IMG/VR virus record: IMGVR_UViG_3300047335_000010
Span: 1 to 42,792 of that record
Reading direction: 5' to 3' (one strand)
Length of the DNA stretch: 42,792 nucleotides
From: a virus
A program made the translations under genes and the position numbers. The notes under the pieces were generated by a model. It made no database searches, had not been told where the DNA came from, and worked only from the letters and a program-made list of their open reading frames with translations. Below are positions 3,229 to 42,792 of the stretch, one piece after another; position 1 is the stretch's first letter; each line of letters starts with the position of its first letter.

Positions 3229-4836
3229 TTGCCAGTTCCATTCGATTTTGATTTCAAGAATCCCGATTATATAGCCGCCTATCGATGGCGGCTAAGTCGG
3301 CTCGAATCGCTTCGTAAGAACCCCAAACAATTCGCAGCATTACGTGTTTATTATCGTGATAACCCAATACAATTTATTAACGATTGGGGCATGACGTACG
3401 ACCCGCGCAATGTCGACCGTCGACTGCCTGCCGCGATCCCGTTTCTTTTATTCCCGAAACAAGAAGAATTCCTTCAATGGCTAATCGATCGATGGAAAGG
3501 ACGCGAACCGGGACTCGCCGATAAATCGCGCGATATGGGTATGTCGTGGTTGACGGTCGCGCTCGCCTGTACGCTTTGCTTATTTCACGATGGAATGTCG
3601 GTCGGTTTCGGCTCGCGCAAGCAGGACTATGTCGATAAGCTCGGCGACCCGAAATCATTACTTTACAAAGCCCGCAAATTTACCGAAGCGCTTCCGCGGG
3701 AATTTAAGGGCTCATGGGACGTGAAAAAACACGCGCCCCACATGCGGATAATGTTTCCAGACACAGGCGCGATCATATCGGGCGAGGCAGGCGATGGGAT
3801 CGGGCGAGGCGACCGTACTAGTATTTACGTTGTGGACGAGGCGGCCTATCTCGAACGACCGGAGTTAATAGATGCGTCCCTTTCTGATACGACCAATTGT
3901 CGAATCGATATCTCGACCCCGAACGGCACCAATAACCCGTTCGCCCACAAACGATTTAGCGGAAAAATATCGACGTTTAGCCTTCACTGGCGAGACGATC
4001 CGCGCAAGGATGACGAATGGTATCAAAAGAAATGCGACTATCTCGACGATCCGGTAATCATCGCGCAGGAACTCGACCTTAATTACTCGGCGTCAGTCGA
4101 AGGCGTATTGATCCCGGCCGAATGGGTCAATGCGGCCATTGACGCGCATACCAAGCTAGGAATTAAGCCCACAGGCGCGCGACGCCTCGGCCTTGACATT
4201 GCGGACGAGGGACGGGATAAAAATGCGGCATGTGGAAGCTACGGCATTTTAATTGAATATCTCGAAGCGTGGTCAGGAAAGGGCGGCGATATTTACGGAA
4301 CGGTCGAAAAGACTTTTACGCTTTGCGATCTTTTTGAATATCCCGAAGCGTACTATGATGCAGACGGGTTAGGCGCGGGCGTCCGGGGCGATGCACGTAT
4401 CATTAATGAGAAACGAATTCATAAAATCCCGTTCCATCCGTTCCACGGGTCAGGGGCGGTCGTTGATCCCGAAGGCGATCCGTTTTTGCGTTCGAAAGAA
4501 CATAAGGACTATAAAAAAGGGCGAACGAACGAGGATTTTTTCGTTAACTTTAACGCTCAGGCGTGGTGGTCGTTGCGTCGTCGTTTCCAGCATACTTATA
4601 AAGCCGTGGTGCAAAAACTGGAATATACCCCGGAAGACATTATCTCGATATCGAGCGCCCTCCCCCAAAGTCGCCAACTTATTATTGAGCTCTCGCAACC
4701 GACGTTTTCGCAAAACAATGTGGGCAAGATTGTCGTCGATAAAACGCCAGACGGCGCTCGGTCGCCTAATTTTGCTGACGCTGTTAAGATAGCCTATGCG
4801 CCTTACAAAAAATCAAGGAGTTTCTGGGATGTTTAG
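3229..4836 (+). CDS. terL: Terminase large subunit (Terminase_6-like)
   Basis: N-terminal [13 protein letters not shown] motif, Walker-A-like KSRDMGMSW, Walker [10 protein letters not shown] and a C-terminal nuclease-like region ([17 protein letters not shown]). TTG start at 3229. The first in-frame ATG lies about 54 codons in, so the exact start is uncertain. Confidence 0.85.
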
Positions 4837-9111: not shown

Positions 9112-9636
9112 ATGAGTTTTCAGTCAACCGTATCTATTAATCAGGGTTTCGGCGTTCCCGGCGAGCAATATACGGACTCGCCATTGATAGCGCAGTCATT
9201 TACAATTAACTCAGCGAGCGCCGCATATAATGTCATTGGCGCGACTTGTTGTTCGATCACTTCTCAAGGTTTTTGCGCGGCGGGAAATTCCGGCGGTACA
9301 ACTCCTTATGCGGGTCTCCTAGTTGACCCGAAAGACGTTGCGCTTTTCGGTACCGGCGGAATCCCGCTCGCACCGACCTTGACCGTCCCGAATTTCACAC
9401 AGGTTGAATGCGCGACAATGGGTACCTTTATTGTCACTCTCCCAGCCGCGGCCGCCATTGGCGACTATGTCGTTTATGACAATACAACCGGCGCAATTAG
9501 TACTGTAGCCTCCGGCTCGTCAACTCCCGGAAGCGGCAAATCATGGGCGAATGCTATCGTTTCTTATTATACCGTGAGCGGTGCAGGATTAGGCGTCATT
9601 ACCATGAATCCCGGCGTAGGTATCCCAACCGTATAA
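9112..9636 (+). CDS. Putative capsid decoration/cement protein
   Basis: 174-aa Gly/Ala/Thr-rich ORF directly upstream of the major capsid gene, with a good RBS (GGGAG). Function is inferred mainly from position. Confidence 0.35.
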   Translation: MSFQSTVSINQGFGVPGEQYTDSPLIAQSFTINSASAAYNVIGATCCSITSQGFCAAGNSGGTTPYAGLLVDPKDVALFGTGGIPLAPTLTVPNFTQVECATMGTFIVTLPAAAAIGDYVVYDNTTGAISTVASGSSTPGSGKSWANAIVSYYTVSGAGLGVITMNPGVGIPTV

Positions 9637-9653
9637 CATAAGGATGTGCAGAT

Positions 9654-10781
9654 ATGTTGAGAAGTAACTCACCAGCAAGAATGAATTTACTACCCCGTCA
9701 GGTGCGAGCACTTGAGGGGTTTAACGCCGCCGAATATCCAGCTTTGAACCGTATCGGGATCAATATGGATCAACGCGCGGTTAATATGCTTTATAACGGC
9801 CGAAAAGCAATGGACTCTATGTCGTATGGCATGGACGCACTGCAACCAACCGTGACAACCGGAAGTATCGGAACCCCCGTGCAATTCCTGCAAAACTGGT
9901 TGCCCGGTTTTGTATTCGTTGTGACCGCGGCGCGTAAAATTGACGACCTGATTGGTCTCATGATTACCGGTTCGTGGGAAGACGAACAGATCGTTCAGGG
10001 TATTTTAGAACGTACTAGTTCATCCCAACCTTATGGCGATTATACAAACGTGCCGTTGAGCTCTTGGAATACTAACTTTAATTTCCGTACCGTCGTGCGC
10101 TTCGAGGAAGGCATGAGAGTCGGCGTGTTAGAATCCGCTCGTGCCGCTCGTCAGTTAGTCGATGACGCGGGCATGAAACGAGAAGCCGCCGCGCTCGCGC
10201 TTGAGATCACTCGTAATGCGGTCGGTTTTTATGGTTTCAACGCAGGCGATAACCTGACTTATGGATTTTTAAATGATCCCGGGTTAGGCTCATACACTAT
10301 CGTTGCGACCGGCGCATCAACTTTCACGACATGGTCGACAAAGACTTTCCTTGAAATTACAAAGGACATTCGTACCGCAGTCGTCGCGTTGCGTAATCAA
10401 TCACAAGATACTATCGATCCTGAAAAAGTCGATTTGACTCTTGCCGTTGCGACCGCTTCCGTTGATTGGCTGACAACTACTTCCGATTTCGGTATTTCCG
10501 TTCGGGACTGGATGAAAGAAGCGTATCCTCGTATGCGCGTCGTGTCCGCTCCACAGCTTAATGCGGCATACTCAAGCGATAACGTTTTTTACTTATACGC
10601 TGATAAACTGGACGATATGAGCACCGATGGCGGCCGGGTATGGATTCAACCCGTCCCAACCAAATTCCAAGTGTTAGGCGTTCAGCAACTCGCTAAGGCT
10701 TATGAAGAAGATTATTCAAATAGCACAGCGGGCGCGATGTGTAAAAGACCATACGCGGTCGTTCGTTATTACGGTATTTAA
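9654..10781 (+). CDS. Major capsid protein (DUF2184-like)
   Basis: 375 aa, in the expected position after scaffold and decoration genes, followed by a strong hairpin. The size and sequence style fit the DUF2184-type capsid proteins that accompany DUF1073 and DUF2213 genes. Confidence 0.7.
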   Translation: MLRSNSPARMNLLPRQVRALEGFNAAEYPALNRIGINMDQRAVNMLYNGRKAMDSMSYGMDALQPTVTTGSIGTPVQFLQNWLPGFVFVVTAARKIDDLIGLMITGSWEDEQIVQGILERTSSSQPYGDYTNVPLSSWNTNFNFRTVVRFEEGMRVGVLESARAARQLVDDAGMKREAAALALEITRNAVGFYGFNAGDNLTYGFLNDPGLGSYTIVATGASTFTTWSTKTFLEITKDIRTAVVALRNQSQDTIDPEKVDLTLAVATASVDWLTTTSDFGISVRDWMKEAYPRMRVVSAPQLNAAYSSDNVFYLYADKLDDMSTDGGRVWIQPVPTKFQVLGVQQLAKAYEEDYSNSTAGAMCKRPYAVVRYYGI

Positions 10782-13190: not shown

Positions 13191-14954
13191 ATGAGCATTT
13201 CCATACAGCGCTACGTCGACATAACGTCAGGCGTCGGCGCGTCCCCGCTAGTTCCCGCCCGCGATCTGATCGGCAGGGTATTTACGGCGAATAATTTATT
13301 GCCGCCACAAAGTTTTATTTCGTTTACGAATGCGGCAGATGTAGGAACCTATTTCGGTTTATCTTCCGAAGAGTATTTGCGAGCCGTATTCTATTTTTCG
13401 TGGATCTCCAAGAATTTAACACAACCGCAAAGTATCCAGTTTGCAAGATGGATGCAAGCCGCGGCCGCTCCGTCAATTATTCCTTTGAACAATAATGGAA
13501 CGACTCTTGCGGCATGGAACGCGATAAGCTCCGGTTCATTTGTGTTAACGATGGGTGGCTTTACTTTCACTCTTACCGGAATTGATACCAGCGCCGCGAG
13601 TGATCTTGCAACCGTTGCCGGCGATATACAAACGGCGATCCGCGCCCAATCGGGCGGTGGTTCGATGTGGACTTCCGCAACCGTGGTTTATTCCGCGGCA
13701 TATGGCGGGTTCATCTTAACCGGTGGCGCGAATGGCGTCGTGACTAATCCGATCAATGTCGTTGTCGGCGGAGGCGGTACAGATATTACGGGTGCAGGGC
13801 TTCTCGGATGGTTGCCTCAACAAGTATTAAGCAACGGGAATTTAATCTCGACCGGCGCGATATGGTCGACCGGATCAGCCGCCGAGACTATTACACAGAC
13901 GTTAACGAACAGTGCGGCCGGGTCAAATAATTTCGGGTCGTTTTTGTTTCTGACAAATTTAGGTATTACGCAGCAAAATATGGTCGACGCGGCAACGTGG
14001 AATTTCGCCGAAAATGTTTTATATATGTATCTACAAGCCGTTACTCCGGCGAATATTGCCACATGGCAAGCGGCAGTCGCAGCGATCGGCGGTATCGGGT
14101 TAACAGTTTCCCCCGTTATTTCGACACAAATAACCGGAACGGTAACAAGTTCCTCCAACGTCGTGACCGCGATGTCCTCGACCGCAGGCTTGACAATAGG
14201 TATGCCCGTTAGTGGAACAGATATCCCGGCCGGTACAGTCGTTACTAGCATTGTCTCAGCGACCAGCGTGACACTGTCGAACGCTGCAACCGGCGGCGTG
14301 ACTGGACTACTTACTTTCACGACATTACAATTCCCCGAACAATTCCCCATGATGATACTTGCTGCGACTAATTACGCGGCGTTTAATAGCGTACAGAATT
14401 ACGAGTTTCAGCAAGTCGCAGGCTTGACCCCCAGCGTGATGGACGATGCAACTGCGAACGCGTACGACAGTATCAATGTTAACTACTACGGCGTAACTCA
14501 ACAGGCTGGATCGCAGATCGCGTTTTATCAGCAAGGCTTATTGCAAGGCGCGAGCGTTGCGGGCGTCATTGTCGATATGACAGCGTATGCAAATGAAATA
14601 TGGTTAAAGGACGCGGCGACCGTTGCGGTCATGAATTTGTTATTGTCCGTCAACCAGATTCCCGCCAACATTTATGGCGCGAGCCAGATTTTAGGAATCT
14701 TGCAGGGCGTCATTAACGTGGCATTAAATAACGGGACGATTAGCGTCGGCAAGACCTTAACGACCGCGCAACAAATGTATATCACGTCCGCAACGGGCGA
14801 CCCGCTTGCATGGTACCAAGTGCAGAATAACGGTTATTGGGTCGATGTCGTGATTACAAGCCCGAGCCCGAATATTTTCGTCGCAACTTACGTTTTGATC
14901 TATAGCAAAGACGACGTGATTCGTAAGGTTATAGGGACGCATACGCTAATATAA
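13191..14954 (+). CDS. Tail sheath protein (DUF3383-like) carrying an inserted ~60-aa module
   Basis: 587 aa with RBS AAGGAG. The N-terminus [15 protein letters not shown]... resembles DUF3383 sheath proteins, and a small tube-like gene follows. Confidence 0.65.
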
Positions 14955-22300: not shown

Positions 22301-23380
22301 ATGACACGACTATATTATATCTACCCGTTCGGGACGAGCGCCGATGATTTAACATCCATCCCGAATACGCCTCCGACCGATGGGAGCGTTAACTACCAAA
22401 CCGGATGGACAGACGCGTATGAATTAGACTTATTGACTAACCCCGCCGCTCTCCCGATCCCACGCGGACAGATGAATCAATTACTTTTAGATATTACGAC
22501 GAACATACAGCAATATCAGCAATATGGCGTGCCCTTCTGGATAAGCTCGGCCGATAACGGCGGCTCGTCTTTCCCGTACGCGCAATGGGCGCTCGCGAGT
22601 TATGGCGGCATCGTGTACGAAAGTCAGGTCGCAAGTAATGTATCAACCCCCGGAACCGATCCGAACTGGTTGCAATTGTCCGCAAATTATAATGGGGTAC
22701 AACCGGGCGTTGTTATCGACTACGCAGGATATAGCGGCGTCGTGGTGCCGGGCGTTCCAATCCCGAATTTGCCCGGATATTTTCTTTGCGACGGTACGGC
22801 AATAAGCCGTTCGACTTATTTAAATTTACGCGAAGCAATCACGATCACGCAGACGGGTACAACAACCAATACGATGAGCACCATAAGCGGATTGACGGAT
22901 ACATCCGATATGTATATCGGAATGCCGATCGAAGGTACGAACATACCGTTATCAACAACGGTTGCAACTATCGTCGATGCAAATAATATTACAATCTCAA
23001 ACCCGGCGACCGGAAGCGGGTCGGGAACGCTCGTCTTTTTCCCGTGGGGCAATGGTGACAATGCAACGACCTTTAACCTGCCCGATTTACGACGCAAAAC
23101 AACGGCGGGCAAATTCGGCACAGGCAGCACGACGTTAGGGAACAAGGTCGGTCAAAGTGGCGGTGAAGAAGCGCACACAATGACGACCGATGAGCTCGTC
23201 CATCACTCGCACAATGCAACCAGCGCCCAGCAATTTTTGACGACCGGAAGCGGGTTTTTATATGGGGCGGGGACGAATGGCGGGCAATTATCGGGTACAA
23301 CGGCGAACAGTACCGGCGCGCAGAATGCTTTTAATGTCGTGCAGCCGACCGCAATCGTTAATAAAGCGATTAAGTACTAA
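22301..23380 (+). CDS. Tail fibre protein with split phage tail-collar domain
   Basis: Collar motifs GYFLCDGTAISRSTYLNLREAI and FNLPDLRRKTTAG...GEEAHTMTTDELVHHSH are separated by an insertion of about 70 aa. Confidence 0.7.
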   Translation: MTRLYYIYPFGTSADDLTSIPNTPPTDGSVNYQTGWTDAYELDLLTNPAALPIPRGQMNQLLLDITTNIQQYQQYGVPFWISSADNGGSSFPYAQWALASYGGIVYESQVASNVSTPGTDPNWLQLSANYNGVQPGVVIDYAGYSGVVVPGVPIPNLPGYFLCDGTAISRSTYLNLREAITITQTGTTTNTMSTISGLTDTSDMYIGMPIEGTNIPLSTTVATIVDANNITISNPATGSGSGTLVFFPWGNGDNATTFNLPDLRRKTTAGKFGTGSTTLGNKVGQSGGEEAHTMTTDELVHHSHNATSAQQFLTTGSGFLYGAGTNGGQLSGTTANSTGAQNAFNVVQPTAIVNKAIKY

Positions 23381-26525: not shown

Positions 26526-27158
26526 GTGATTATATCCCTACTTCAAGAAAAGGGCGGTAGCGGCAAGACGACGATCTCGATTAATCTCGCGAAAGCGTTT
26601 CAATCACTCGGCTATACGGTATTACTCGTCGATTCCGATCCGCAGGGCTCAACGCGCGATTGGCATACGAATAATAATGGCAATACCCTCGATGTGATTG
26701 GCCTTGACCGACCAACGATCGATAAAGATATAAAACGGTTTACCCGCCAGTATGATTATATTTTTATTGATGGCGCGCCGCATTTATCCGTCATGGTCAC
26801 GAAGACTATTATTATATCTGACGTCGTGCTCGTCCCGGTTCAGCCGTCGCCGTACGATGTGTGGGCGAGCGCCTCGCTCGTCTCGCTCATTAAGCAGCGC
26901 CAAGAGATAACGGATGGCAAGCCCAAAGCCGCGTTCGTTATTAGCCGCAAGATCGTCGGGACGAATATCGGGCGAGAAGTTAATACCGCCTTGATTGAGT
27001 ACGGCTTGCCGATCGTCTCGGGCGGTACGTGCCAACGCGTGAGTTATGCGGAGACGGCCGCAAAGGGCTTGACCGTTTTATCGAGTGACGATAATTCGGC
27101 CAAGAGCGAAATGAGCATACTAGCCGCGAATGTATTGGAGTTTTCTAAAAATGATTAA
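26526..27158 (+). CDS. parA: ParA/Soj-family partition ATPase (small, type Ib-like)
   Basis: Deviant Walker A in MIISLLQEKGGSGKTTISINLA, then LLVDSDPQGS and IFIDGAP. 210 aa with no N-terminal HTH. GTG start. Confidence 0.85.
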   Translation: MIISLLQEKGGSGKTTISINLAKAFQSLGYTVLLVDSDPQGSTRDWHTNNNGNTLDVIGLDRPTIDKDIKRFTRQYDYIFIDGAPHLSVMVTKTIIISDVVLVPVQPSPYDVWASASLVSLIKQRQEITDGKPKAAFVISRKIVGTNIGREVNTALIEYGLPIVSGGTCQRVSYAETAAKGLTVLSSDDNSAKSEMSILAANVLEFSKND

Positions 27159-27336
27159 AGCTAAAAAAGATACGTCACGGGTCGCAAAGCTTCAAAAGCA
27201 AATGTTATCGCCCAAGAAAAATTTAAACGTCGAGATCGACGCGGCGCTATTCAAACGATTTAAAGCGAAGGTCGCCGCGAACGGTGAGACCATGACGGAA
27301 ATTCTCACCGGGGCGATACTGGACTATTTAGCGTGA
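27151..27336 (+). CDS. Ribbon-helix-helix partner protein (ParG/CopG-like centromere-binding candidate)
   Basis: 61 aa with a basic N-terminal tail, then NLNVEIDAALFKRFKAKVAANGETMTEILTGAILDYL (beta strand, helix, helix pattern). ATG at 27151 overlaps the parA stop. Confidence 0.55.
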   Translation: MIKAKKDTSRVAKLQKQMLSPKKNLNVEIDAALFKRFKAKVAANGETMTEILTGAILDYLA

Positions 27337-33320: not shown

Positions 33321-33532
33321 ATAGGAAACTCCGGTAAATATTGCCAGTGAGTTATTTCATGAGGAATATCCGAAAAATAAAAAATAATATCGTCCCATTC
33401 CGTGTATTCACCATTTAAAAAACTGAACGTGGACATAACGACCATATCTTTTTTATCTTGGCAGACAACATGTACAAGAACTTTTTCGCCTACCGGCGGA
33501 TGTTGTTTTTTAATATCGATCCAATTACTCAT
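33317..33532 (-). CDS. DUF551 protein (tandem paralogue)
   Basis: WIDIKKQHPP...ITHWQYLPEFP. Confidence 0.7.
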   Translation of the reverse strand: MSNWIDIKKQHPPVGEKVLVHVVCQDKKDMVVMSTFSFLNGEYTEWDDIIFYFSDIPHEITHWQYLPEFPI

Positions 33533-34419
33533 ACGCTCGTCCCCGCCATATACGTATCGATAAATTCCGAGACGCCCGCGAACAGATCGGGACGGCAGGG
33601 CAGTACTGCAAGGGACGGCATCCCGACGGATTCGACCGCCCGAACGACCGTTTCTTGCGTGATTTTCCCTTGCTGGACGAGCCCGGTTATTTTTTTCATA
33701 AGGGACGGCCAGTCGAGCTCAGGCGCATCGGATTTAAACCCCGCGAATTCGCCACCTTTAACTGGCGCACTTGGCGCACTTGGCGCACTTGGCGCACTTG
33801 GCGCACTTGGCGCACTTGGCGCACTTGGCGCACTTGGCGCACTTGGCGCACTTGGCGCATCGGTCGAGGCGCGTAATTGCTGCGAGATTTCGTCGACTTT
33901 TCGCAAGTCTATCCCGCGCTGGACTTTCCACGTCCCGTCCGCATTCTTACTCTTGGTGCGCGTGTGTATACGGGCGTCCCACGGTAGCCCTGCCGTATCG
34001 AGGTCAACGCCGGTTTTAATCGGACGCGGAACAAGGTCGGGATCAACTGTGAACGGATTGAACGCAGCGTCCGGTAGCCCGGGCGCAGGCGGGGGCGTCA
34101 GGTCGCGGAGCGGTTCGACCGGGGCGGGCATTTTATACGAGGGGACAGGTTTATCGCCTTCGGGTATTAACTCGTTACAACCGTCCGTACTGACGGGTTT
34201 CTCGGAATTAGCTGGGCTAGTTCCGACCGGGGCGGCCATTAACTCGTTGCGCGGAACGATCCCGAGTAGGTAATCGTCGGTATTATCTTTTTTAGCAGCC
34301 GTGAGCGGAACGGGGGCGGGACGTACTTCAGCGCCCGCAATTTTCATCAATAGCGTTGCGACATCGATCAATAGTTGCCTTGGCGCAAGGTGCGGGTCGG
34401 TGATTTCAATTTTAATCAT
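33529..34419 (-). CDS. Pro-rich hypothetical protein with (APS)10 linker; first gene of leftward operon
   Basis: SD GGAGA upstream of the ATG at 34419, and ATGA coupling to the next gene. Contains a GLPWDARIH motif and a perfect APS repeat. Confidence 0.6.
   Translation of the reverse strand: MIKIEITDPHLAPRQLLIDVATLLMKIAGAEVRPAPVPLTAAKKDNTDDYLLGIVPRNELMAAPVGTSPANSEKPVSTDGCNELIPEGDKPVPSYKMPAPVEPLRDLTPPPAPGLPDAAFNPFTVDPDLVPRPIKTGVDLDTAGLPWDARIHTRTKSKNADGTWKVQRGIDLRKVDEISQQLRASTDAPSAPSAPSAPSAPSAPSAPSAPSAPSAPSAPVKGGEFAGFKSDAPELDWPSLMKKITGLVQQGKITQETVVRAVESVGMPSLAVLPCRPDLFAGVSEFIDTYMAGTSV
33764..33860. repeat. Perfect 9-bp tandem repeat GGCGCACTT x10 plus a partial unit, in frame within a CDS
   Basis: Read directly: ten identical units at 33764-33853, then GGCGCAT. 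Confidence 0.95.
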
Positions 34420-36783: not shown

Positions 36784-37098
36784 ATGTCAAGAGCAAAACG
36801 AACGAGGCCTGCCGTCAGGCGCGAACAGCTAATCGACGCGGCTATAAAAATAAGTAAAGAAATAGGGTACAATAAGCTTACACGCGATAAAGTCATGAAA
36901 GAAGTCGGCATAACCGTCTCTCTTTTAAGCTATTATTTTCCTCGCATGTCAGACTTAAAAAACGCTGTTATGGATGCGGCGGTCGAACGTGGAATTGTCG
37001 AAGTTATTGCACAGGGAATCACTTTAAACGATCCGCGCGCACTCACGATCAATCCGCAAACCAAACTACAGGTAATCGCATTTATGATGCAAACTTGA
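36784..37098 (+). CDS. Short TetR-family-like HTH DNA-binding protein
   Basis: REQLIDAAIKISKEIGYNKLTRDKVMKEVGITVSLLSYYFPRMSDLKNAVM matches the TetR_N pattern. At 104 aa it lacks most of the usual ligand-binding domain. Confidence 0.6.
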   Translation: MSRAKRTRPAVRREQLIDAAIKISKEIGYNKLTRDKVMKEVGITVSLLSYYFPRMSDLKNAVMDAAVERGIVEVIAQGITLNDPRALTINPQTKLQVIAFMMQT

Positions 37099-37111
37099 AG
37101 GATTATTTACT

Positions 37112-39436
37112 ATGGAAGCTTTCACGAAATATAATCAATTTATCCTCTATATGATCGTACCGTCCCGCCGTTCAGGTAAAAACGATAAGATGCCAATTAA
37201 TTGGCGAACCGGGAAAGTCGCGAACGCACACGACCCGAAAATCTGGCTATCACGGGATCAAGCTAATATCAAAGCAAAGGAATTGAACGCGCGCGTCGGT
37301 TTCGTATTCACTAAGGACGACCCGTTTTTCTTCATCGATATTGACGATTGTTATGACCCTACGACTAACCAATGGTCAACTCTCGCGTTAAAAATGCTTG
37401 CCGCCTTTCAAGGCGCAGCGGTCGAAGTCTCAAGCGGTGGTCGCGGCCTTCACATATTCGGCACCGGTACCGTTCCGCCGCATACGTGCCGCAACGCCGA
37501 AAATAAACTCGAATTTTATACCGACGGACGTTTTGTCGCGCTTACCGGGTTCCATGCAACGGGTGATGCCGGTAAGGATTGTTCGGCCGTACTCCCGTGG
37601 CTAGTCGAGACGTACTTCAAGCCGGAACCGGATAGCGGTTCGTCATTGCAACCGTGGACGACCGAAGCCGTTAAAGGCTACCGTTGCGAATCGACGGACG
37701 ACGAATTAATCGAGCGGATGCTGCAATCAAAACCGGTGTCGGCCATATTCGGCGATGGCATTACGTTCCGCGATCTTTGGGAAGCGAACGAGCCGGTACT
37801 TGCGAAAGCGTATCCGCCGAACGAAACGGATAACTATAACCGGAGCTCCGCCGATGCGGCACTCGCGCAACGACTCGCTTTCTGGACGGGCAAGAATTGC
37901 GAACGGATCGAGACGTTAATGAAGAGGTCGGCCTTAGTCCGCGAGAAATGGGAACGTAACGACTATCTCCCGAACACCATTCGAGCGGTGTGCGGGAGAC
38001 AAATAGAAGTGCTTTACGATAAGCCCCCAGAATATACGACAGCACCCGATAAGATTCAAGCGGACGATGCGCCACGGCCTAAGCTCGTCACCGGCTCGAC
38101 GTTCCTCACAGTCGATCAACAGATCGATTATTTCGCCGGGTGCGTGTACGTGCTCGACGAACACAAGGTCATGATACCGGACGGCCAGCTACTCACCCCC
38201 GAACGGTTCAAGGCGTACTATGGCGGTAATATGATGCCGCTCGATGTCGCTAATACGAAGACGACCCGGAACGCTTTCGAGGCATTTACTGAATCGCAGG
38301 CATTCCGGGCACCGCGGGCGGATTCCTGTATTTTCCGTCCAGACTGTACCCCGGGAGGCATCGTATTGGATGACGGGCGACGGATGGCGAATATCTATCA
38401 CCCAGTACACACCTTGCGGATGTCCGGCGAGATCGCCCCGTTCGTGCGCCACATTGAAAAGTTATTCCCCGACCGGCGCGACCAAGACATTATCCTCGCT
38501 TATCTTGCGGCGATCATTCAATACAAGGGCGTTAAATTCCAATGGTGCCCGCTCATACAAGGCGTGGAGGGAAACGGAAAGACTTTCCTGACCTACGCCG
38601 TTGCGTTCGCGATCGGCCAACGATATAGCCATTTCCCGAAAGCGGCCGAGATCGCCTCGAAATTCAATGATTGGCTATACGCCCGTATTTTCGTCGGGGT
38701 CGAAGATATCTTTCTCGCCGATTCGAAATTCGAGGTAATCGAAGCATTAAAGCCGATGATTACCGGGCAATACCAAGAAATCGAGGCGAAGGGCGGGACG
38801 AAAATCACGCGGAGTATTTGCGCGAATTTCATCCTGAATACCAATCACAAGGACGGGCTCAGGAAGACCCGCAACGATCGCCGGTTCGCCCCGTTCTATA
38901 CCCCGCAGCAAAACGCGCAAGACTTGATACGGGACGAAATGGACGCACGCTATTTTTCCGAATTATATAAATGGGCGAGGAAGTGTAACGGGTACGCAAT
39001 CATTCATTGGTTTCTGGCAGGTTATGCGATCCCCGATGCGCTTAATCCCGCGCATGGCGAGAAAGCGCCACAGACAAGCTCAACCGAGGCCGCTATCGAG
39101 CAGGGCATGGGACGCATCGAGCAGGAAGTACTCGAAGCCGTAGCGGAAGGTTTATCGGGCTTCCGGGGCGGCTGGGTATCCTCGATCGCACTCGATAATT
39201 TACTCGTACGCGTGAAAGCGGATCGCGCCATGCCAAGGCGCAAACGCCGCGAGATGATGGAAAGTTTGGGTTATGGGTGGCATCCGGCATTAAAAGACGG
39301 CCGCATGACCCGGAACGTCCAGCCGGATGGTAGCAAGCCGACACTATACCTTCGTTTCGATCATGTAGCGCTTAAACTGCAAACGGTTGAAGACATTGCA
39401 AAAGCCTACACGGAAGCACAGACGAAAGTTGATTAA
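37112..39436 (+). CDS. Bifunctional primase-polymerase (AEP) + SF3 helicase (P4 alpha / D5-like)
   Basis: AEP motifs FFFIDIDDC and GGRGLHIFG. C-terminal Walker A QGVEGNGKTF and Walker B IFVGVEDI. 774 aa. Confidence 0.8.
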   Translation: MEAFTKYNQFILYMIVPSRRSGKNDKMPINWRTGKVANAHDPKIWLSRDQANIKAKELNARVGFVFTKDDPFFFIDIDDCYDPTTNQWSTLALKMLAAFQGAAVEVSSGGRGLHIFGTGTVPPHTCRNAENKLEFYTDGRFVALTGFHATGDAGKDCSAVLPWLVETYFKPEPDSGSSLQPWTTEAVKGYRCESTDDELIERMLQSKPVSAIFGDGITFRDLWEANEPVLAKAYPPNETDNYNRSSADAALAQRLAFWTGKNCERIETLMKRSALVREKWERNDYLPNTIRAVCGRQIEVLYDKPPEYTTAPDKIQADDAPRPKLVTGSTFLTVDQQIDYFAGCVYVLDEHKVMIPDGQLLTPERFKAYYGGNMMPLDVANTKTTRNAFEAFTESQAFRAPRADSCIFRPDCTPGGIVLDDGRRMANIYHPVHTLRMSGEIAPFVRHIEKLFPDRRDQDIILAYLAAIIQYKGVKFQWCPLIQGVEGNGKTFLTYAVAFAIGQRYSHFPKAAEIASKFNDWLYARIFVGVEDIFLADSKFEVIEALKPMITGQYQEIEAKGGTKITRSICANFILNTNHKDGLRKTRNDRRFAPFYTPQQNAQDLIRDEMDARYFSELYKWARKCNGYAIIHWFLAGYAIPDALNPAHGEKAPQTSSTEAAIEQGMGRIEQEVLEAVAEGLSGFRGGWVSSIALDNLLVRVKADRAMPRRKRREMMESLGYGWHPALKDGRMTRNVQPDGSKPTLYLRFDHVALKLQTVEDIAKAYTEAQTKVD

Positions 39437-39550: not shown

Positions 39551-39700
39551 ATGCACACATACAAAGTTTGGTTCCGTAAATTGGTAAATGGCGCGTGGGG
39601 CGCAGAGAGCGCGCGGGTCGTTTACGCTGAAAATATCGTGACCGCCCGGGCGATGGTATTAACCAAGGACGTCATTATCGAGCGCATCCTCCGGCTATAG
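39551..39700 (+). CDS. Possible 49-aa protein (not in ORF track)
   Basis: MHTYKVWFRKLVNGAWGAESARVVYAENIVTARAMVLTKDVIIERILRL, preceded by GGGGG 5 nt upstream. Confidence 0.3.
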   Translation: MHTYKVWFRKLVNGAWGAESARVVYAENIVTARAMVLTKDVIIERILRL

Positions 39701-39709
39701 CGTCAAATT

Positions 39710-39913
39710 TCACTTAGGTTCAACGATTACCTTCTGCCTAGGCCGATACCTGCGGTCAAGCTCGATGTCGGCCGCAGGGATAAGGATAGAGCGCCCGCAG
39801 TCACAGCGCTTATGGTTAGGGAAATGGCCTTGCTTGAGTTTAGCGTCGATTCGTTGCTTACAGACGCCCAAAAGCTCGGCGGCCTCGGCGGTCGTTAGTT
39901 TCTTCTTTTTCAT
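39710..39913 (-). CDS. HTH DNA-binding protein (excisionase/AlpA/MerR-like fold)
   Basis: LTTAEAAELLGVCKQRIDAKLKQGHFP...ILIPAADIE, with SD GAGGGGAG. It is a lone minus-strand gene abutting the iteron field. Confidence 0.6.
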   Translation of the reverse strand: MKKKKLTTAEAAELLGVCKQRIDAKLKQGHFPNHKRCDCGRSILIPAADIELDRRYRPRQKVIVEPK

Positions 39914-40020
39914 GGTCTCCCCTCACAATTGCCGCGGAGTATAGCAATAACCGTAATTTGCGGTATACTAAATCCGTAACTTCCTAGTGACACAATCCTC
40001 GCGTTAATCCCTGTCAATGA

Positions 40021-40353
40021 GCCGGTATCGAAATATACCGGCCTCATACCGGCTCGCCTATACCGGCCTTAACTTAACTCATTGATTCTATTAAACTTTT
40101 TATTAACACGGCCGGTATGGCCGGTATAAAATGAAATCGCTCCAGCCGACTCCACCGGTACCCTCCGGCATACTGTAGGTCACGGCCTATACTTCCCGTT
40201 TACTCCCCATTCCACCGACTTCTATTTATACCGGCCATACCGGCCACACCCTTTATATTAATAATAAAATATTCTTATTAATTAATTATTTAATTAAATA
40301 AAAGGGGACGGCCGGTATAGCATGGCCGGTATACGGCCGGTACAGGCCGGTAT
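40021..40353. repeat. Iteron field: 12 copies of (GG)CCGGTA(T/C) in both orientations (putative replication origin)
   Basis: Plus orientation at 40022, 40112, 40121, 40312, 40326, 40337 and 40347. Minus orientation at 40035, 40046, 40060, 40228 and 40237. A 13th copy lies at 40582. There is an 18-bp perfect inverted repeat at 40110-27 / 40228-45 and a palindrome GCCGGTAT-N6-ATACCGGC at 40021-42. Confidence 0.75.
40252..40304. other. AT-only stretch (putative DNA unwinding element)
   Basis: About 53 bp containing a single C (40274), flanked on both sides by iteron clusters. Confidence 0.6.
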
Positions 40354-40460
40354 CCATGTGATTGTAAATAAAACGGGCAGATTACGAAAAATGATCCGGC
40401 TTTGTACGACGAACTAAGGGAATAGTTGGGGGATTGCGCTTCGTTTGCACAACGAAACGT

Positions 40461-40575
40461 CCGTTTTCGTCCGTTCGGCGACCGTTTTCGTCCGTTCGGC
40501 GACCGTTTTCGTCCGTTCGGCGACCGTTTTCGTCCGTTCGGCGACCGTTTTCGTCCGTTCGTCGGCCGTTCGGCG
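40461..40575. repeat. 21-bp tandem repeat CCGTTTTCGTCCGTTCGGCGA, 4 perfect + 1 degenerate units
   Basis: Units start at 40461, 40482, 40503, 40524 and 40545. CCGTT recurs every 10-11 bp. The overlapping ORFs encode only repeat peptides. Confidence 0.9.
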
Positions 40576-40648
40576 AGCCGGATACCGGCAACGTGACCGG
40601 AACGACGGAGTGTGATACCGTAATAATATTTAAGGAAGTAATACAAAC

Positions 40649-41074
40649 ATGGCAGAAAAGAAGAAAAAAAAGACAGTAAAGAAATATGTAAAAAAATACG
40701 TCACGTCTTATAAAATGATCGAAGAGTGCCGCGTTTTGGCTGGGCACGGATTGACGACGGATCAACTCGCCTATTATTTTAAGTTAAAACCGATCACGCT
40801 TCATAGAATGATCGCACGCGATCCGGTATTGAAGGAAGCGATCAAGAACGGCAAATCGGTCGTCATTGCAGAGATAGCCGGGCTACTTGTGCAAAAAGCA
40901 CGTGAAGGCAATGTATCGGCTATGGTATTTTATTTGAAGACTCAAGCACGTTGGAACGAGTTTAATAATTCAGATAATCCCCCTCCCGACAAGCCAAAAA
41001 TAAGTTATAGTATAACGACGACCGACCCGGTTGAGGCCGCGCGTATTTATCAGCAAATCATGACAGGGAGCTAG
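40649..41074 (+). CDS. terS: Terminase small subunit-like DNA-binding protein
   Basis: Lys-rich N-terminus, HTH-like LTTDQLAYYFKLKPITLHRMIARD and the motif REGNVSAMVFYLKTQARWNEF seen in small terminases. RBS AAGGAAG. Confidence 0.55.
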   Translation: MAEKKKKKTVKKYVKKYVTSYKMIEECRVLAGHGLTTDQLAYYFKLKPITLHRMIARDPVLKEAIKNGKSVVIAEIAGLLVQKAREGNVSAMVFYLKTQARWNEFNNSDNPPPDKPKISYSITTTDPVEAARIYQQIMTGS

Positions 41075-41077
41075 TGT

Positions 41078-41350
41078 ATGGGGTCAACCGTACAAGCAAG
41101 TGACGGCGCAATGCTACCGCTAGATAGTCTCGCGCAAGAATTTATTTTTAGCGGCAGTTTCATTTCAACGATTACCGTCCAATACGCTGGCCGCGCGTAC
41201 GTTCAAACCTTCGAAAATGACGGTACAAATATTATCTTTATTTCTAATTGGATTTATACGCCTATATTGCCCGGCGGCGAGATCATGACAGACGAAAGCG
41301 GCGACGTCATGACCGATGAAAGCGGCGACATTATGGTTACGGAGAGTTAA
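41078..41350 (+). CDS. Hypothetical protein with C-terminal MTDESGD(V/I) duplication
   Basis: 90-aa ORF between terS and the fibre gene. A 24-bp unit is duplicated at its 3' end. Confidence 0.45.
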   Translation: MGSTVQASDGAMLPLDSLAQEFIFSGSFISTITVQYAGRAYVQTFENDGTNIIFISNWIYTPILPGGEIMTDESGDVMTDESGDIMVTES

Positions 41351-42098: not shown

Positions 42099-42792
42099 AT
42101 GATTACCGCCGCAGAGTTTCTGACGTTATGTAGTGTATTTAATGTAAAAATTGGCGGCGGATCGATCTCGATTCCCGTCTCGATGGGGCAAGGCGGTACG
42201 GGCGCGGTATTAAGCCCGAGCGCAGGAAGCCTGCTTGTATCCGGGGCGAGTCATGCGTCATTACTTCCGACTAGCCCGTTCGGCTTGCTCGCAACAGATG
42301 GCAGCGGCAATCCTTCGATCACTAACTCGTTACCGTCCGGGTTATCAATTCCCGGCTATCTCGCCCTGAGCGGCGGGACGATGACCGGTAACCTTATTTT
42401 AAACGGCGATCCCACCAATCCGTTACAAGCGGCGACGATGCAATACGTTCAGAGTATTGGGACGGGCTTCACGCCGTTAGGTTCCGTCTATGCCGCGTCA
42501 ACCGCGAATCTTACCGGGTGGACATACACAAACGGGTCGAGTGGTGTGGGAGCGCAATTGACCGCGCCCGGCAATGGCGTTTATACAACTGACGGGACAA
42601 CACCCCCGCTAAATAGTTTTATTTTATATAAAGACGATACGACCTATTCGAGCGTGGCGAACGGTATTTATCAACTCACAACAAGTGACAGTGGCGACCG
42701 GGCGGTACTGACCCGTGCGACCTATTACGATACTCCCGCACAAATTAAACCCGGTACGCTCGTTAGTATCGAGAATGGAAACGTGAATGCCG
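42099..42792 (+). CDS. Tail fibre protein, 5' part (continues through the terminal repeat into 83..2838)
   Basis: ATG at 42099 after AAGGA. The frame stays open to the end of the window and is in phase with frame 1 at base 1. Contains the classic fibre motif LSGGTMTGNLILNGDPTNPLQAATMQYV. Confidence 0.8.
   Translation, partial: MITAAEFLTLCSVFNVKIGGGSISIPVSMGQGGTGAVLSPSAGSLLVSGASHASLLPTSPFGLLATDGSGNPSITNSLPSGLSIPGYLALSGGTMTGNLILNGDPTNPLQAATMQYVQSIGTGFTPLGSVYAASTANLTGWTYTNGSSGVGAQLTAPGNGVYTTDGTTPPLNSFILYKDDTTYSSVANGIYQLTTSDSGDRAVLTRATYYDTPAQIKPGTLVSIENGNVNA
42711..42792. repeat. Terminal direct repeat, copy 2 (identical to 1..82)
   Basis: Same 82-nt string as the start of the window. Confidence 0.95.

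Follow-up and report, generated by a model that had tools for sequence, protein, structure and literature searches.

A field of lineage-specific repeats upstream of terS as a candidate replication origin in a clade of myoviruses encoding a prim-pol/SF3 helicase

Anatomy of the repeat field

In this work, we analysed the IMG/VR record IMGVR_UViG_3300047335_000010 (the window, 42,792 nucleotides), a complete phage genome in a circular assembly of 42,710 bp with an 82-bp terminal overlap (positions 1-82 = 42711-42792), and focused on a field of short repeats at 40021-40353. A sequence-only reading of the window, made without database searches, had proposed that this field is a plasmid-type replication origin. 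The field lies in a 735-bp gap (39914-40648) between the replication module and the gene for the small terminase subunit (terS). On its left side, the gap is preceded by a gene for a 774-aa fusion of a primase-polymerase (prim-pol) with a superfamily 3 (SF3) helicase (37112-39436, plus strand), by a conserved 49-aa open reading frame (ORF), and by a lone helix-turn-helix (HTH) gene of the HTH_17 (excisionase) family (39710-39913, minus strand; Pfam HTH_17 1.2e-8) transcribed away from the field. On the right side, the terS homologue (40649-41074, plus strand; phrog_309 1.6e-13) opens one long plus-strand late operon and starts 296 nt past the final repeat of the field. The ORF check found none credible in 39914-40648, so that the repeats do lie in non-coding DNA, as had been claimed.

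The repeat CCGGTAY (R site) occurs 43 times in the genome versus 13.3 ± 3.8 times in dinucleotide shuffles, and the 333 bp of the field hold 13 sites, where 0.23 would be expected at the rate found in the rest of the genome (Poisson P ~6e-19). The full 9-mer GGCCGGTAT is concentrated still further, with 9 of its 11 genomic copies within the field. The clustering described earlier is thus borne out, while the number of copies, previously given as 12, becomes 13 when the weak palindromic CACCGGTACCC at 40155 is included. The motif scan revealed an outer cluster (40021-40067) of four R sites, at 40021-28 (+), 40035-42 (-), 40046-53 (-) and 40060-67 (-). The first two are the inverted 8-mers GCCGGTAT and ATACCGGC of what had been called a palindrome (40021-40042), the 6-bp spacer between them being non-palindromic. 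Further to the right, a doublet with a 9-bp period (GGCCGGTATGGCCGGTAT; 40110-40127, plus strand) is followed by a 100-bp spacer (40128-40227), which is C-rich in the top strand (G-C of -5 to -13 per 40 nt) and bears one weak site, that at 40155. The spacer ends at an inverted doublet (40228-40245, minus strand), the perfect reverse complement of the first one, just as the sequence-only reading had stated for these 18-mers.

The inverted doublet forms the left flank of an A/T-only block of 52 nt with one C (40252-40303), a putative DNA unwinding element. The single C had been noted correctly; the extent of 53 bp, to 40304, requires a correction, since 40304 is a G. The right flank is formed by four direct R sites on the plus strand (40310-40353), which start at 40311, 40325, 40336 and 40346 with the spacings of 14, 11 and 10 bp, in agreement with the earlier description. 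The A/T block is the longest run of its kind in the genome (the next longest outside it comprises 23 nt) and serves as the centre of a long imperfect palindrome at 40227-40333, with a DNA fold z-score of -5.4. Because of this palindrome, the Rfam search of the region yielded sub-threshold matches to miRNA hairpins, all spurious and the only ones obtained; the tRNA search of the region found none. In addition, the block marks a local switch of the GC skew, the top strand being C-rich to the left of it and G-rich to the right. An isolated extra R site, reported previously near 40582, is indeed present at 40582-40589 (minus strand).

Two further signals are found in the gap. A site perfectly matching the consensus of the integration host factor (IHF), AATCAATGAGTTA (40075-40087), is followed by an A/T tract, together occupying 40075-40104 (minus strand) between the outer cluster and the forward doublet. 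The consensus WATCAANNNNTTR has only 3 matches in the whole genome (42.7 kb), and about 0.02 matches would be expected in the intergenic region. Between the field and terS, a tandem array of a 21-bp unit repeated 5.2 times (CCGTTTTCGTCCGTTCGGCGA; 40461-40570, plus strand; TRF score 206, 97% matches) brings CCGTT every 10-11 bp, and four of its units score as a weak terminator-like hairpin with a T-run. This array of five 21-bp units has the format of theta-type iterons, but the array as such is not kept in relatives, where we found TTCGTC-type words akin to it in loci L015 (in the opposite orientation), L020 and L017 (palindromes). It may represent a second class of repeats, being either the sites of another protein or leaky terminator-like hairpins that insulate terS.

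Conserved layout and changing motif in related phages

Searched with blastn, the DNA of the region gave no match in GenBank phages or PLSDB plasmids. Because the field evolves too fast for blastn, relatives were sought via proteins, and the collection (loci denoted here by L-numbers) was obtained through the terminase, primase, ParA and HTH proteins. The results showed that the layout of the element recurs in at least seven related lineages, the cultured Klebsiella Jedunaviruses included. In L015, L020, L017, L004 and L314, the element occupies the same gap, and its parts follow one another as in the window: the outer cluster (one forward site, three reverse), the IHF consensus with the A/T tract, the forward doublet with the 9-bp period, the C-rich spacer of about 100 bp, the reverse doublet, the A/T block (35-54 nt here) and the four forward sites. 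The spacings across these five loci are equal or within 1-2 bp. L015, L020 and L017 share with the window the number, orientation and spacing of sites in the outer cluster, the spacings of the direct sites (equal or within 1-2 bp), and the placing of the A/T block between two minus-strand sites (40228-45 in the window) on its left and four plus-strand sites (40310-53) on its right. The IHF site is found at the same place in L004, L017, L020 and L104, and with one mismatch in L015; L020 also has an isolated R site at the place equivalent to 40582. The equivalents of the A/T block comprise 32-54 nt, the spacer remains C-rich in all relatives with the sign of G-C flipping at the block, and the skew switch is seen in every relative and in both element copies of the Jedunavirus JD001. 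Reduced or A/T-shifted versions of the element are present in L104, L028 and L062.

In this conserved frame, the motif itself varies between lineages. It is GCCGGTAT in the window, L015, L020 and L314, (A/C)CGGTAT (MCGGTAT) in L004, GCCCGTAT in L017, GCCCGAA(C/T) (GCCCGAAY) in L104 and GGGGTA(T/A) in L028. The switch from one motif to another hits nearly every homologous site at once, with the exception of a few variant copies. Such a concerted change across lineages indicates that the sites are read by a co-evolving sequence-specific protein. The explanation by an abundant host repeat of the repetitive extragenic palindromic (REP) type, named in the sequence-only reading as a finding that would speak against an origin, was rejected: the search for the 18-mer doublet in 185,579 species genomes returned at least 120 scattered single matches in unrelated phyla, among the matches listed there was no cluster of sites, and those inspected turned out to be coding tandem repeats. 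Likewise, an exact search of the IMG/VR viral contigs with the 18-mer gave 8 chance matches without clusters. The element is not present in the contigs L191-L193, which are related by the primase C-terminus.

The cultured relatives are the Klebsiella Jedunaviruses, whose primase-helicase is 46% identical to that of the window. Upstream of their own terS they bear a comparable element, whose motif is GGGGTA, and they have a second, near-identical copy of about 380 bp that lies about 13.5 kb away in the same orientation, before a tail-gene block. The copies occupy 9401-9930 and 22925-23334 in JD001 (L185), and 13985-14389 and 47225-47405 together with 1-229 in KpV52 (L189). Within each phage, they evolve in concert: both copies read AGGGTATAAGGGTAA in KpV52 and GGGGTATAGGGGTAA in JD001. 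The genes that are transcribed away from the element vary from copy to copy and also from phage to phage, and one of them, JD001 9931-10227, resembles by eye an AP2/HNH-type homing endonuclease. The records of Jedunavirus genomes also start near or inside the element, the break in KpV52 falling on the left border of the A/T block in copy A; this choice of the start may be arbitrary and is not regarded here as evidence.

The comparison of the window with JD001 is especially informative as to the genes with which the element is inherited. The two phages have a common replication module, which comprises an SF2 helicase (48% identity), the primase-helicase (46%), a TetR-like protein, a nuclease, an exonuclease and a single-stranded DNA-binding protein. 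Their TerS, TerL and portal proteins are not detectably homologous, yet the element is present in both. Since the replication module is common to them and the terminase is not, the element travels with the replication genes.

Two observations concern the neighbourhood of the element in other phages. A gene for a DNA methyltransferase with a ParB_N domain, missing from the window, is inserted between the element and terS in L020 (3782-5017), L104 (4776-6011) and L022 (2-457). In more distant phages of the same terminase family, the stop codon of a primase-helicase gene (C-terminus ...EHGW...) is directly followed by a repeat field of another kind; such fields were found in L110 (1647-1759), L115 (4031-4138), L121 (4029-4141), L125 (795-906), L151 (3236-3347), L158 (4306-4421) and L178 (1643-1817), the upstream genes of L158 and L178 not being resolved. 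The primase part, scanned at two loci, is Prim-Pol+PriCT_1+AAA_25 in L121 and Toprim+AAA_25 in L151. These fields are built of 3-4 direct 7-mers, a palindromic copy, the conserved GGGGGCAAAGGC, 2 direct copies, a short hairpin and 2 inverted copies, and the 7-mer differs from phage to phage (GGTACCT, CGTAACG, TGCCCCT, TGACCCT, ACTATAC, GGCCCCT). We count these 7-mer fields after primase-helicase genes as a parallel case in favour of reading the field of the window as an origin.

Candidate readers of the repeats and their gene context

The sequence-only reading named two natural candidates for the initiator, the prim-pol/SF3 helicase and the lone HTH protein. The 774-aa helicase belongs to the PHROG DNA primase family (5e-121) and contains the Pfam domains NrS1-1_pol-like_HBD and DUF5906. 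Among the PDB sequences, it matches the NrS-1 primase (1e-23), PriRep5 of SaPI5 (7OLA; 5.5e-12), the match falling in the prim-pol domain, and NrS-1's C-terminal region (3e-6). The AlphaFold2 (AF2) model of its C-terminal 112 aa has a high predicted confidence (pLDDT 93.9) and a helix-strand-helix-helix-strand-strand order. The weak structural hits obtained for this domain with Foldseek are mostly winged-helix domains (ORC/Cdc6, MarR, GntR, forkhead, RTP, Cdt1), several of them from origin-recognition proteins. In the model, the last ~110 residues appear winged-helix-like.

Two parts of this domain track the motif class, namely the residues that follow a conserved Gly-Arg and the one preceding Leu-Tyr. 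Phages with CCGGTAT have GRMT[RK]...KPT, the phage with CCCGTAT has MTRL...KPR along with changes in a helix, and GRVNN...KPR is common to all three phages with GGGGTA (JD001, KpV52 and L028). The last case is noteworthy in that the C-terminal domain of L028 is only 50% identical to that of JD001, and L028 has the window-type terminase and the HTH_17 gene. The tracking of the motif class, in a small sample of eight sequences with five motif classes, is the best pointer to the C-terminal domain as the likely reader of the R sites. Together with the relation to PriRep5 and the co-inheritance with the element, it makes the primase-helicase the best candidate for the initiator, in line with the earlier suggestion, though a candidate only.

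The second of the two proposed initiators fared differently. The HTH_17 gene adjoins the element in the window, L015, L020, L004 and L314 and lies farther off in L104 and L028, but it was not found in the whole genomes of JD001 and KpV52, nor in the ~10 kb sequenced around the element in the L017-type contigs (L017-19). Since all these loci keep the element, HTH_17 was rejected both as the general initiator and as the universal reader. The four GCCGGTAT lineages and L004 have a common recognition helix (CKQRIDAKLKQG), bar single conservative substitutions (L->I in L020 and also in L314; D->N and L->V in L004), and this helix is different in L104 and L028, which have other motifs; in L315, a near-identical helix is encoded beside an element-like region with another motif. 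Probably, HTH_17 is a lineage-specific regulator or accessory factor and not a universal partner of the element.

Two other DNA-binding proteins were rejected as readers. The recognition helix of the TetR-like protein (36784-37098) differs more between the window and L020, which share the motif, than between the window and L017, which do not. As for TerS, its putative recognition helix reads HCWYDTIQRH in L020 versus ITLHRMIARD in the window with the same motif GCCGGTAT, the TerS of L017 is closer and the motif is different, JD001 keeps the element with a non-homologous terminase, and L028 combines a window-type TerS with a JD001-type motif.

Some features of the genome outside the gap are described here for completeness. 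The 49-aa ORF (39551-39700; MHTYKVWFRKLVNGAW...), just 3′ of the primase-helicase gene, is shared by L017-19 and L020, and no protein family matched it. The terS gene and the gene for the large terminase subunit (3229-4836) are about 4.8 kb apart (40649-4836 across the junction), an unusual order kept in L022 and L190; among the genes between them are those for a 90-aa protein, a 256-aa protein and a tail-fibre-like protein of more than 921 aa, and the circle was broken inside a tail-fibre-like ORF. The C-terminus of the 90-aa protein, encoded after terS, bears a repeated (I/V)MTDESGD peptide specified by a 24-bp repeat of 2.6 units (41274-41335). A perfect tandem repeat of 9 bp x 10.8 (TGGCGCACT; 33763-33859) was examined as an alternative origin and rejected, as it encodes a (SAP)10 linker; it resides in the minus-strand ORF 33529-34419 (296-aa protein), which sits at the divergence point of two replication operons.

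A putative origin and the alternatives to it

Taken together, the results lead us to favour, with moderate confidence, the view that the field is a replication origin serving the phage primase-helicase, composed of iterons and an unwinding element as in the systems of Staphylococcus aureus pathogenicity islands (SaPIs) and phage P4. The earlier proposal thus seems right in kind, the function being deduced from comparison of sequences. In SaPI origins, an AT-rich centre divides 6-12 short iterons (5-8 bp), either side having two or more and the two sides facing opposite ways; these origins are bound by the C-terminal winged helix of the self-loading helicase Rep/PriRep, which is fused to a primase in SaPI5 (PMC9371898). 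The window has the same features: a central A/T block of 52 nt bordered by two inverted sites on the left and four direct ones on the right (at least two opposed iterons per side), lineage-specific iterons (13 short sites of 7-9 bp), and a primase-helicase fusion. The differences are that the field does not directly follow the stop codon of the initiator gene, that there are an additional outer cluster, an IHF site and a doublet 100 bp away, and that the C-terminal domain lacks a significant structural match to PriRep5; moreover, the phage is a lytic-type myovirus with a probably Gram-negative host, not a satellite.

The general kind of origin, iterons with an AT-rich unwinding element as in P4, can be retained from the sequence-only reading; its identification as a theta-type plasmid origin is not supported. 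Such origins have tandem direct iterons of ~17-22 bp and DnaA boxes, both of which the field lacks, its repeats being of 7-9 bp and mixed in orientation; the AT-rich region alone is present. No Rep_3-type (WH1-WH2) initiator was found among the scanned proteins of the replication region, and the PLSDB plasmids gave no full-length match to the primase.

In the mechanism that we propose, the R sites would act as iterons for a phage protein, the best candidate being the 774-aa prim-pol/SF3 helicase with its winged-helix-like C-terminal domain. Helicase hexamers would assemble on the opposed sites flanking the 52-nt A/T block, the block would melt, and the prim-pol domain would prime on the exposed strands. 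The outer R cluster, the IHF-type bend and the distal doublet could fold back so as to stabilise or regulate the complex.

Parallels to this arrangement exist in other replication systems. In P4, octamer iterons in both orientations are read by the C-terminal winged-helix domain of the alpha protein and form two regions, ori and crr, which recall the two Jedunavirus copies; the primase type of alpha is different, and the window has a single copy. The origins of SV40 and papillomaviruses have inverted pentamer or hexamer sites beside an A/T tract, on which an SF3 helicase forms a double hexamer. The helicase domain of the window protein (DUF5906) is likewise SF3; this is an analogy only, as those viruses are eukaryotic and use a separate origin-binding fold. 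SPP1, a lytic headful phage, has initiator repeats in two dispersed copies, oriL and oriR, along with an AT-rich region; one of the copies lies among the late genes. This provides a precedent for the duplicated Jedunavirus element, with the reservation that SPP1 has an unrelated initiator (G38P) and repeats of another format.

Several observations weigh against an origin, or against the primase-helicase as its reader. The feature of SaPIs whereby the origin lies immediately downstream of the initiator gene is not found here, the field being further from the initiator stop codon than the SaPI norm. The distance from the field to the initiator gene is 585 nt in the window, an interval that holds the 49-aa ORF and the HTH gene, about 3 kb in L104 and about 4 kb in JD001. 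Measured from the start of the late operon, the position of the field is more constant than when measured from the initiator gene. A transcriptional role would suit the second Jedunavirus copy, too, with its location before tail genes. The field has no DnaA box better than one mismatch in an A/T context, and there is no extremum of the genome-scale GC skew at 40 kb. The cumulative skew, suggested previously as a check, proved uninformative on the origin, as on the genome scale it follows the direction of transcription. The Foldseek search of the C-terminal domain against the PDB gave nothing below E = 0.3, and PriRep5 was not among the weak top hits. Finally, the domain is strongly conserved overall, and the sample in which it covaries with the motif is small.

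Of the alternatives, the one to be taken most seriously, even if we consider it unlikely, is that the field is the control region of a late-gene switch, where a phage regulator (HTH_17 where it is present) would use the R sites as operators or activator sites, and promoters shaped by the IHF bend with the A/T block would drive the HTH gene and the terminase/late operon in divergent directions. The location is in good accord with this, since the field is always directly upstream of the first late-operon gene (terS, or the ParB_N-methylase followed by terS), in most lineages at a divergent junction. The second Jedunavirus copy, in the same orientation, precedes a tail-gene block that restarts after two minus-strand genes, and sigma70-like extended -10 elements are seen just downstream of each Jedunavirus copy. 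Nevertheless, in KpV52 a copy is found at only one of the four junctions where the late cluster restarts, so that the element is not a general late-promoter module, and the promoter scan of the field itself was not above background, with no conserved -35/-10 inside. The near-constant recognition helix of HTH_17 in the GCCGGTAT lineages and L004, and its change in L104 and L028, would suit an operator function, but JD001, KpV52 and the L017-type loci retain the element without HTH_17, L315 has a near-identical helix with another motif, and the TetR-like regulator shows no covariation. Besides, 13 sites, a 52-nt A/T block and a skew switch exceed what known phage operators need.

A composite model, which we regard as quite unlikely, treats the field as a shared organiser. 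The R motif would be read on the duplex by the C-terminal domain of the helicase and, on the melted G-rich outgoing single strands, as a template sequence by the helix bundle of the prim-pol, while the same complex would gate the late/packaging operon. It is relevant here that NrS-1 polymerase needs an 8-nt template motif (PMC7102993, PMC8718748). A shared organiser would explain the skew switch, the fixed position before late operons and the duplicated Jedunavirus copy.

Less probable again is a packaging site (pac or cosB-like), at which TerS would bind the repeats with the help of an IHF bend and start headful packaging beside its own gene. Two clusters of short repeats in both orientations with an IHF site, next to terS (which starts 296 nt past the final R site), do recall P1 pac and lambda cosB; unlike there, the repeats do not track TerS and persist across terminase types, the motif being uncoupled from the type of TerS in L020, L017, L028 and JD001. 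Headful packaging would fit the circular assembly and the report that one Jedunavirus has no fixed termini (PMC9007800), but in L020 and L104 the methylase gene stands between the field and terS, and the Jedunaviruses have two copies of the element.

The window also bears a ParA/ribbon-helix-helix (RHH) cassette (26526-27336), in which the gene for a type Ib ParA (AAA_31/CbiA, 4e-25) is followed by that for a 61-aa RHH protein with weak matches to ParG/RHH_10. The closest cultured homologues of this ParA (45-47%) are those of the plasmid-prophages VP882, phiHAP-1 and VHML, and the L104/L186 phage has the same cassette (72%). No integrase match was obtained among the ORFs of at least 90 aa scanned with Pfam and PHROGs, many ORFs lying outside that scan, and a plasmid-like carrier state is possible for this otherwise lytic-looking phage. 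That the R arrays are the partition centromere of this pair, bound by the ParG-like protein in such a state, is highly improbable despite the short direct and inverted repeat arrays typical of RHH centromere-binding proteins, since the parA cassette is 13 kb from the field and has upstream repeats of its own (CGTTTTAAT twice in the window, ATCTTTAAAT three times in L186), JD001 has the element and no ParA could be found in it, and the field co-varies with the replication genes.

Returning to the origin that we favour, we found no description of the element, or of a replication origin of this phage clade, in the literature searched. It is an ordinary type of element newly described for this phage group, with the outer cluster, the IHF site and the distal doublet as extra parts. 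A search of metagenomic phage genomes for its layout would help annotation by marking where the replication and packaging modules meet. If the reading is correct, the replication origin, and the domain that likely recognises it, would be identified for a widespread clade of myoviruses with a prim-pol/SF3 helicase, which includes the Jedunaviruses now in development for Klebsiella phage therapy; the cultured relatives make the decisive experiments easy. In that case, the motif series CCGG -> CCCG -> GGGG, together with a small and confidently modelled domain, would offer a system for studying how the specificity of replication initiators evolves.

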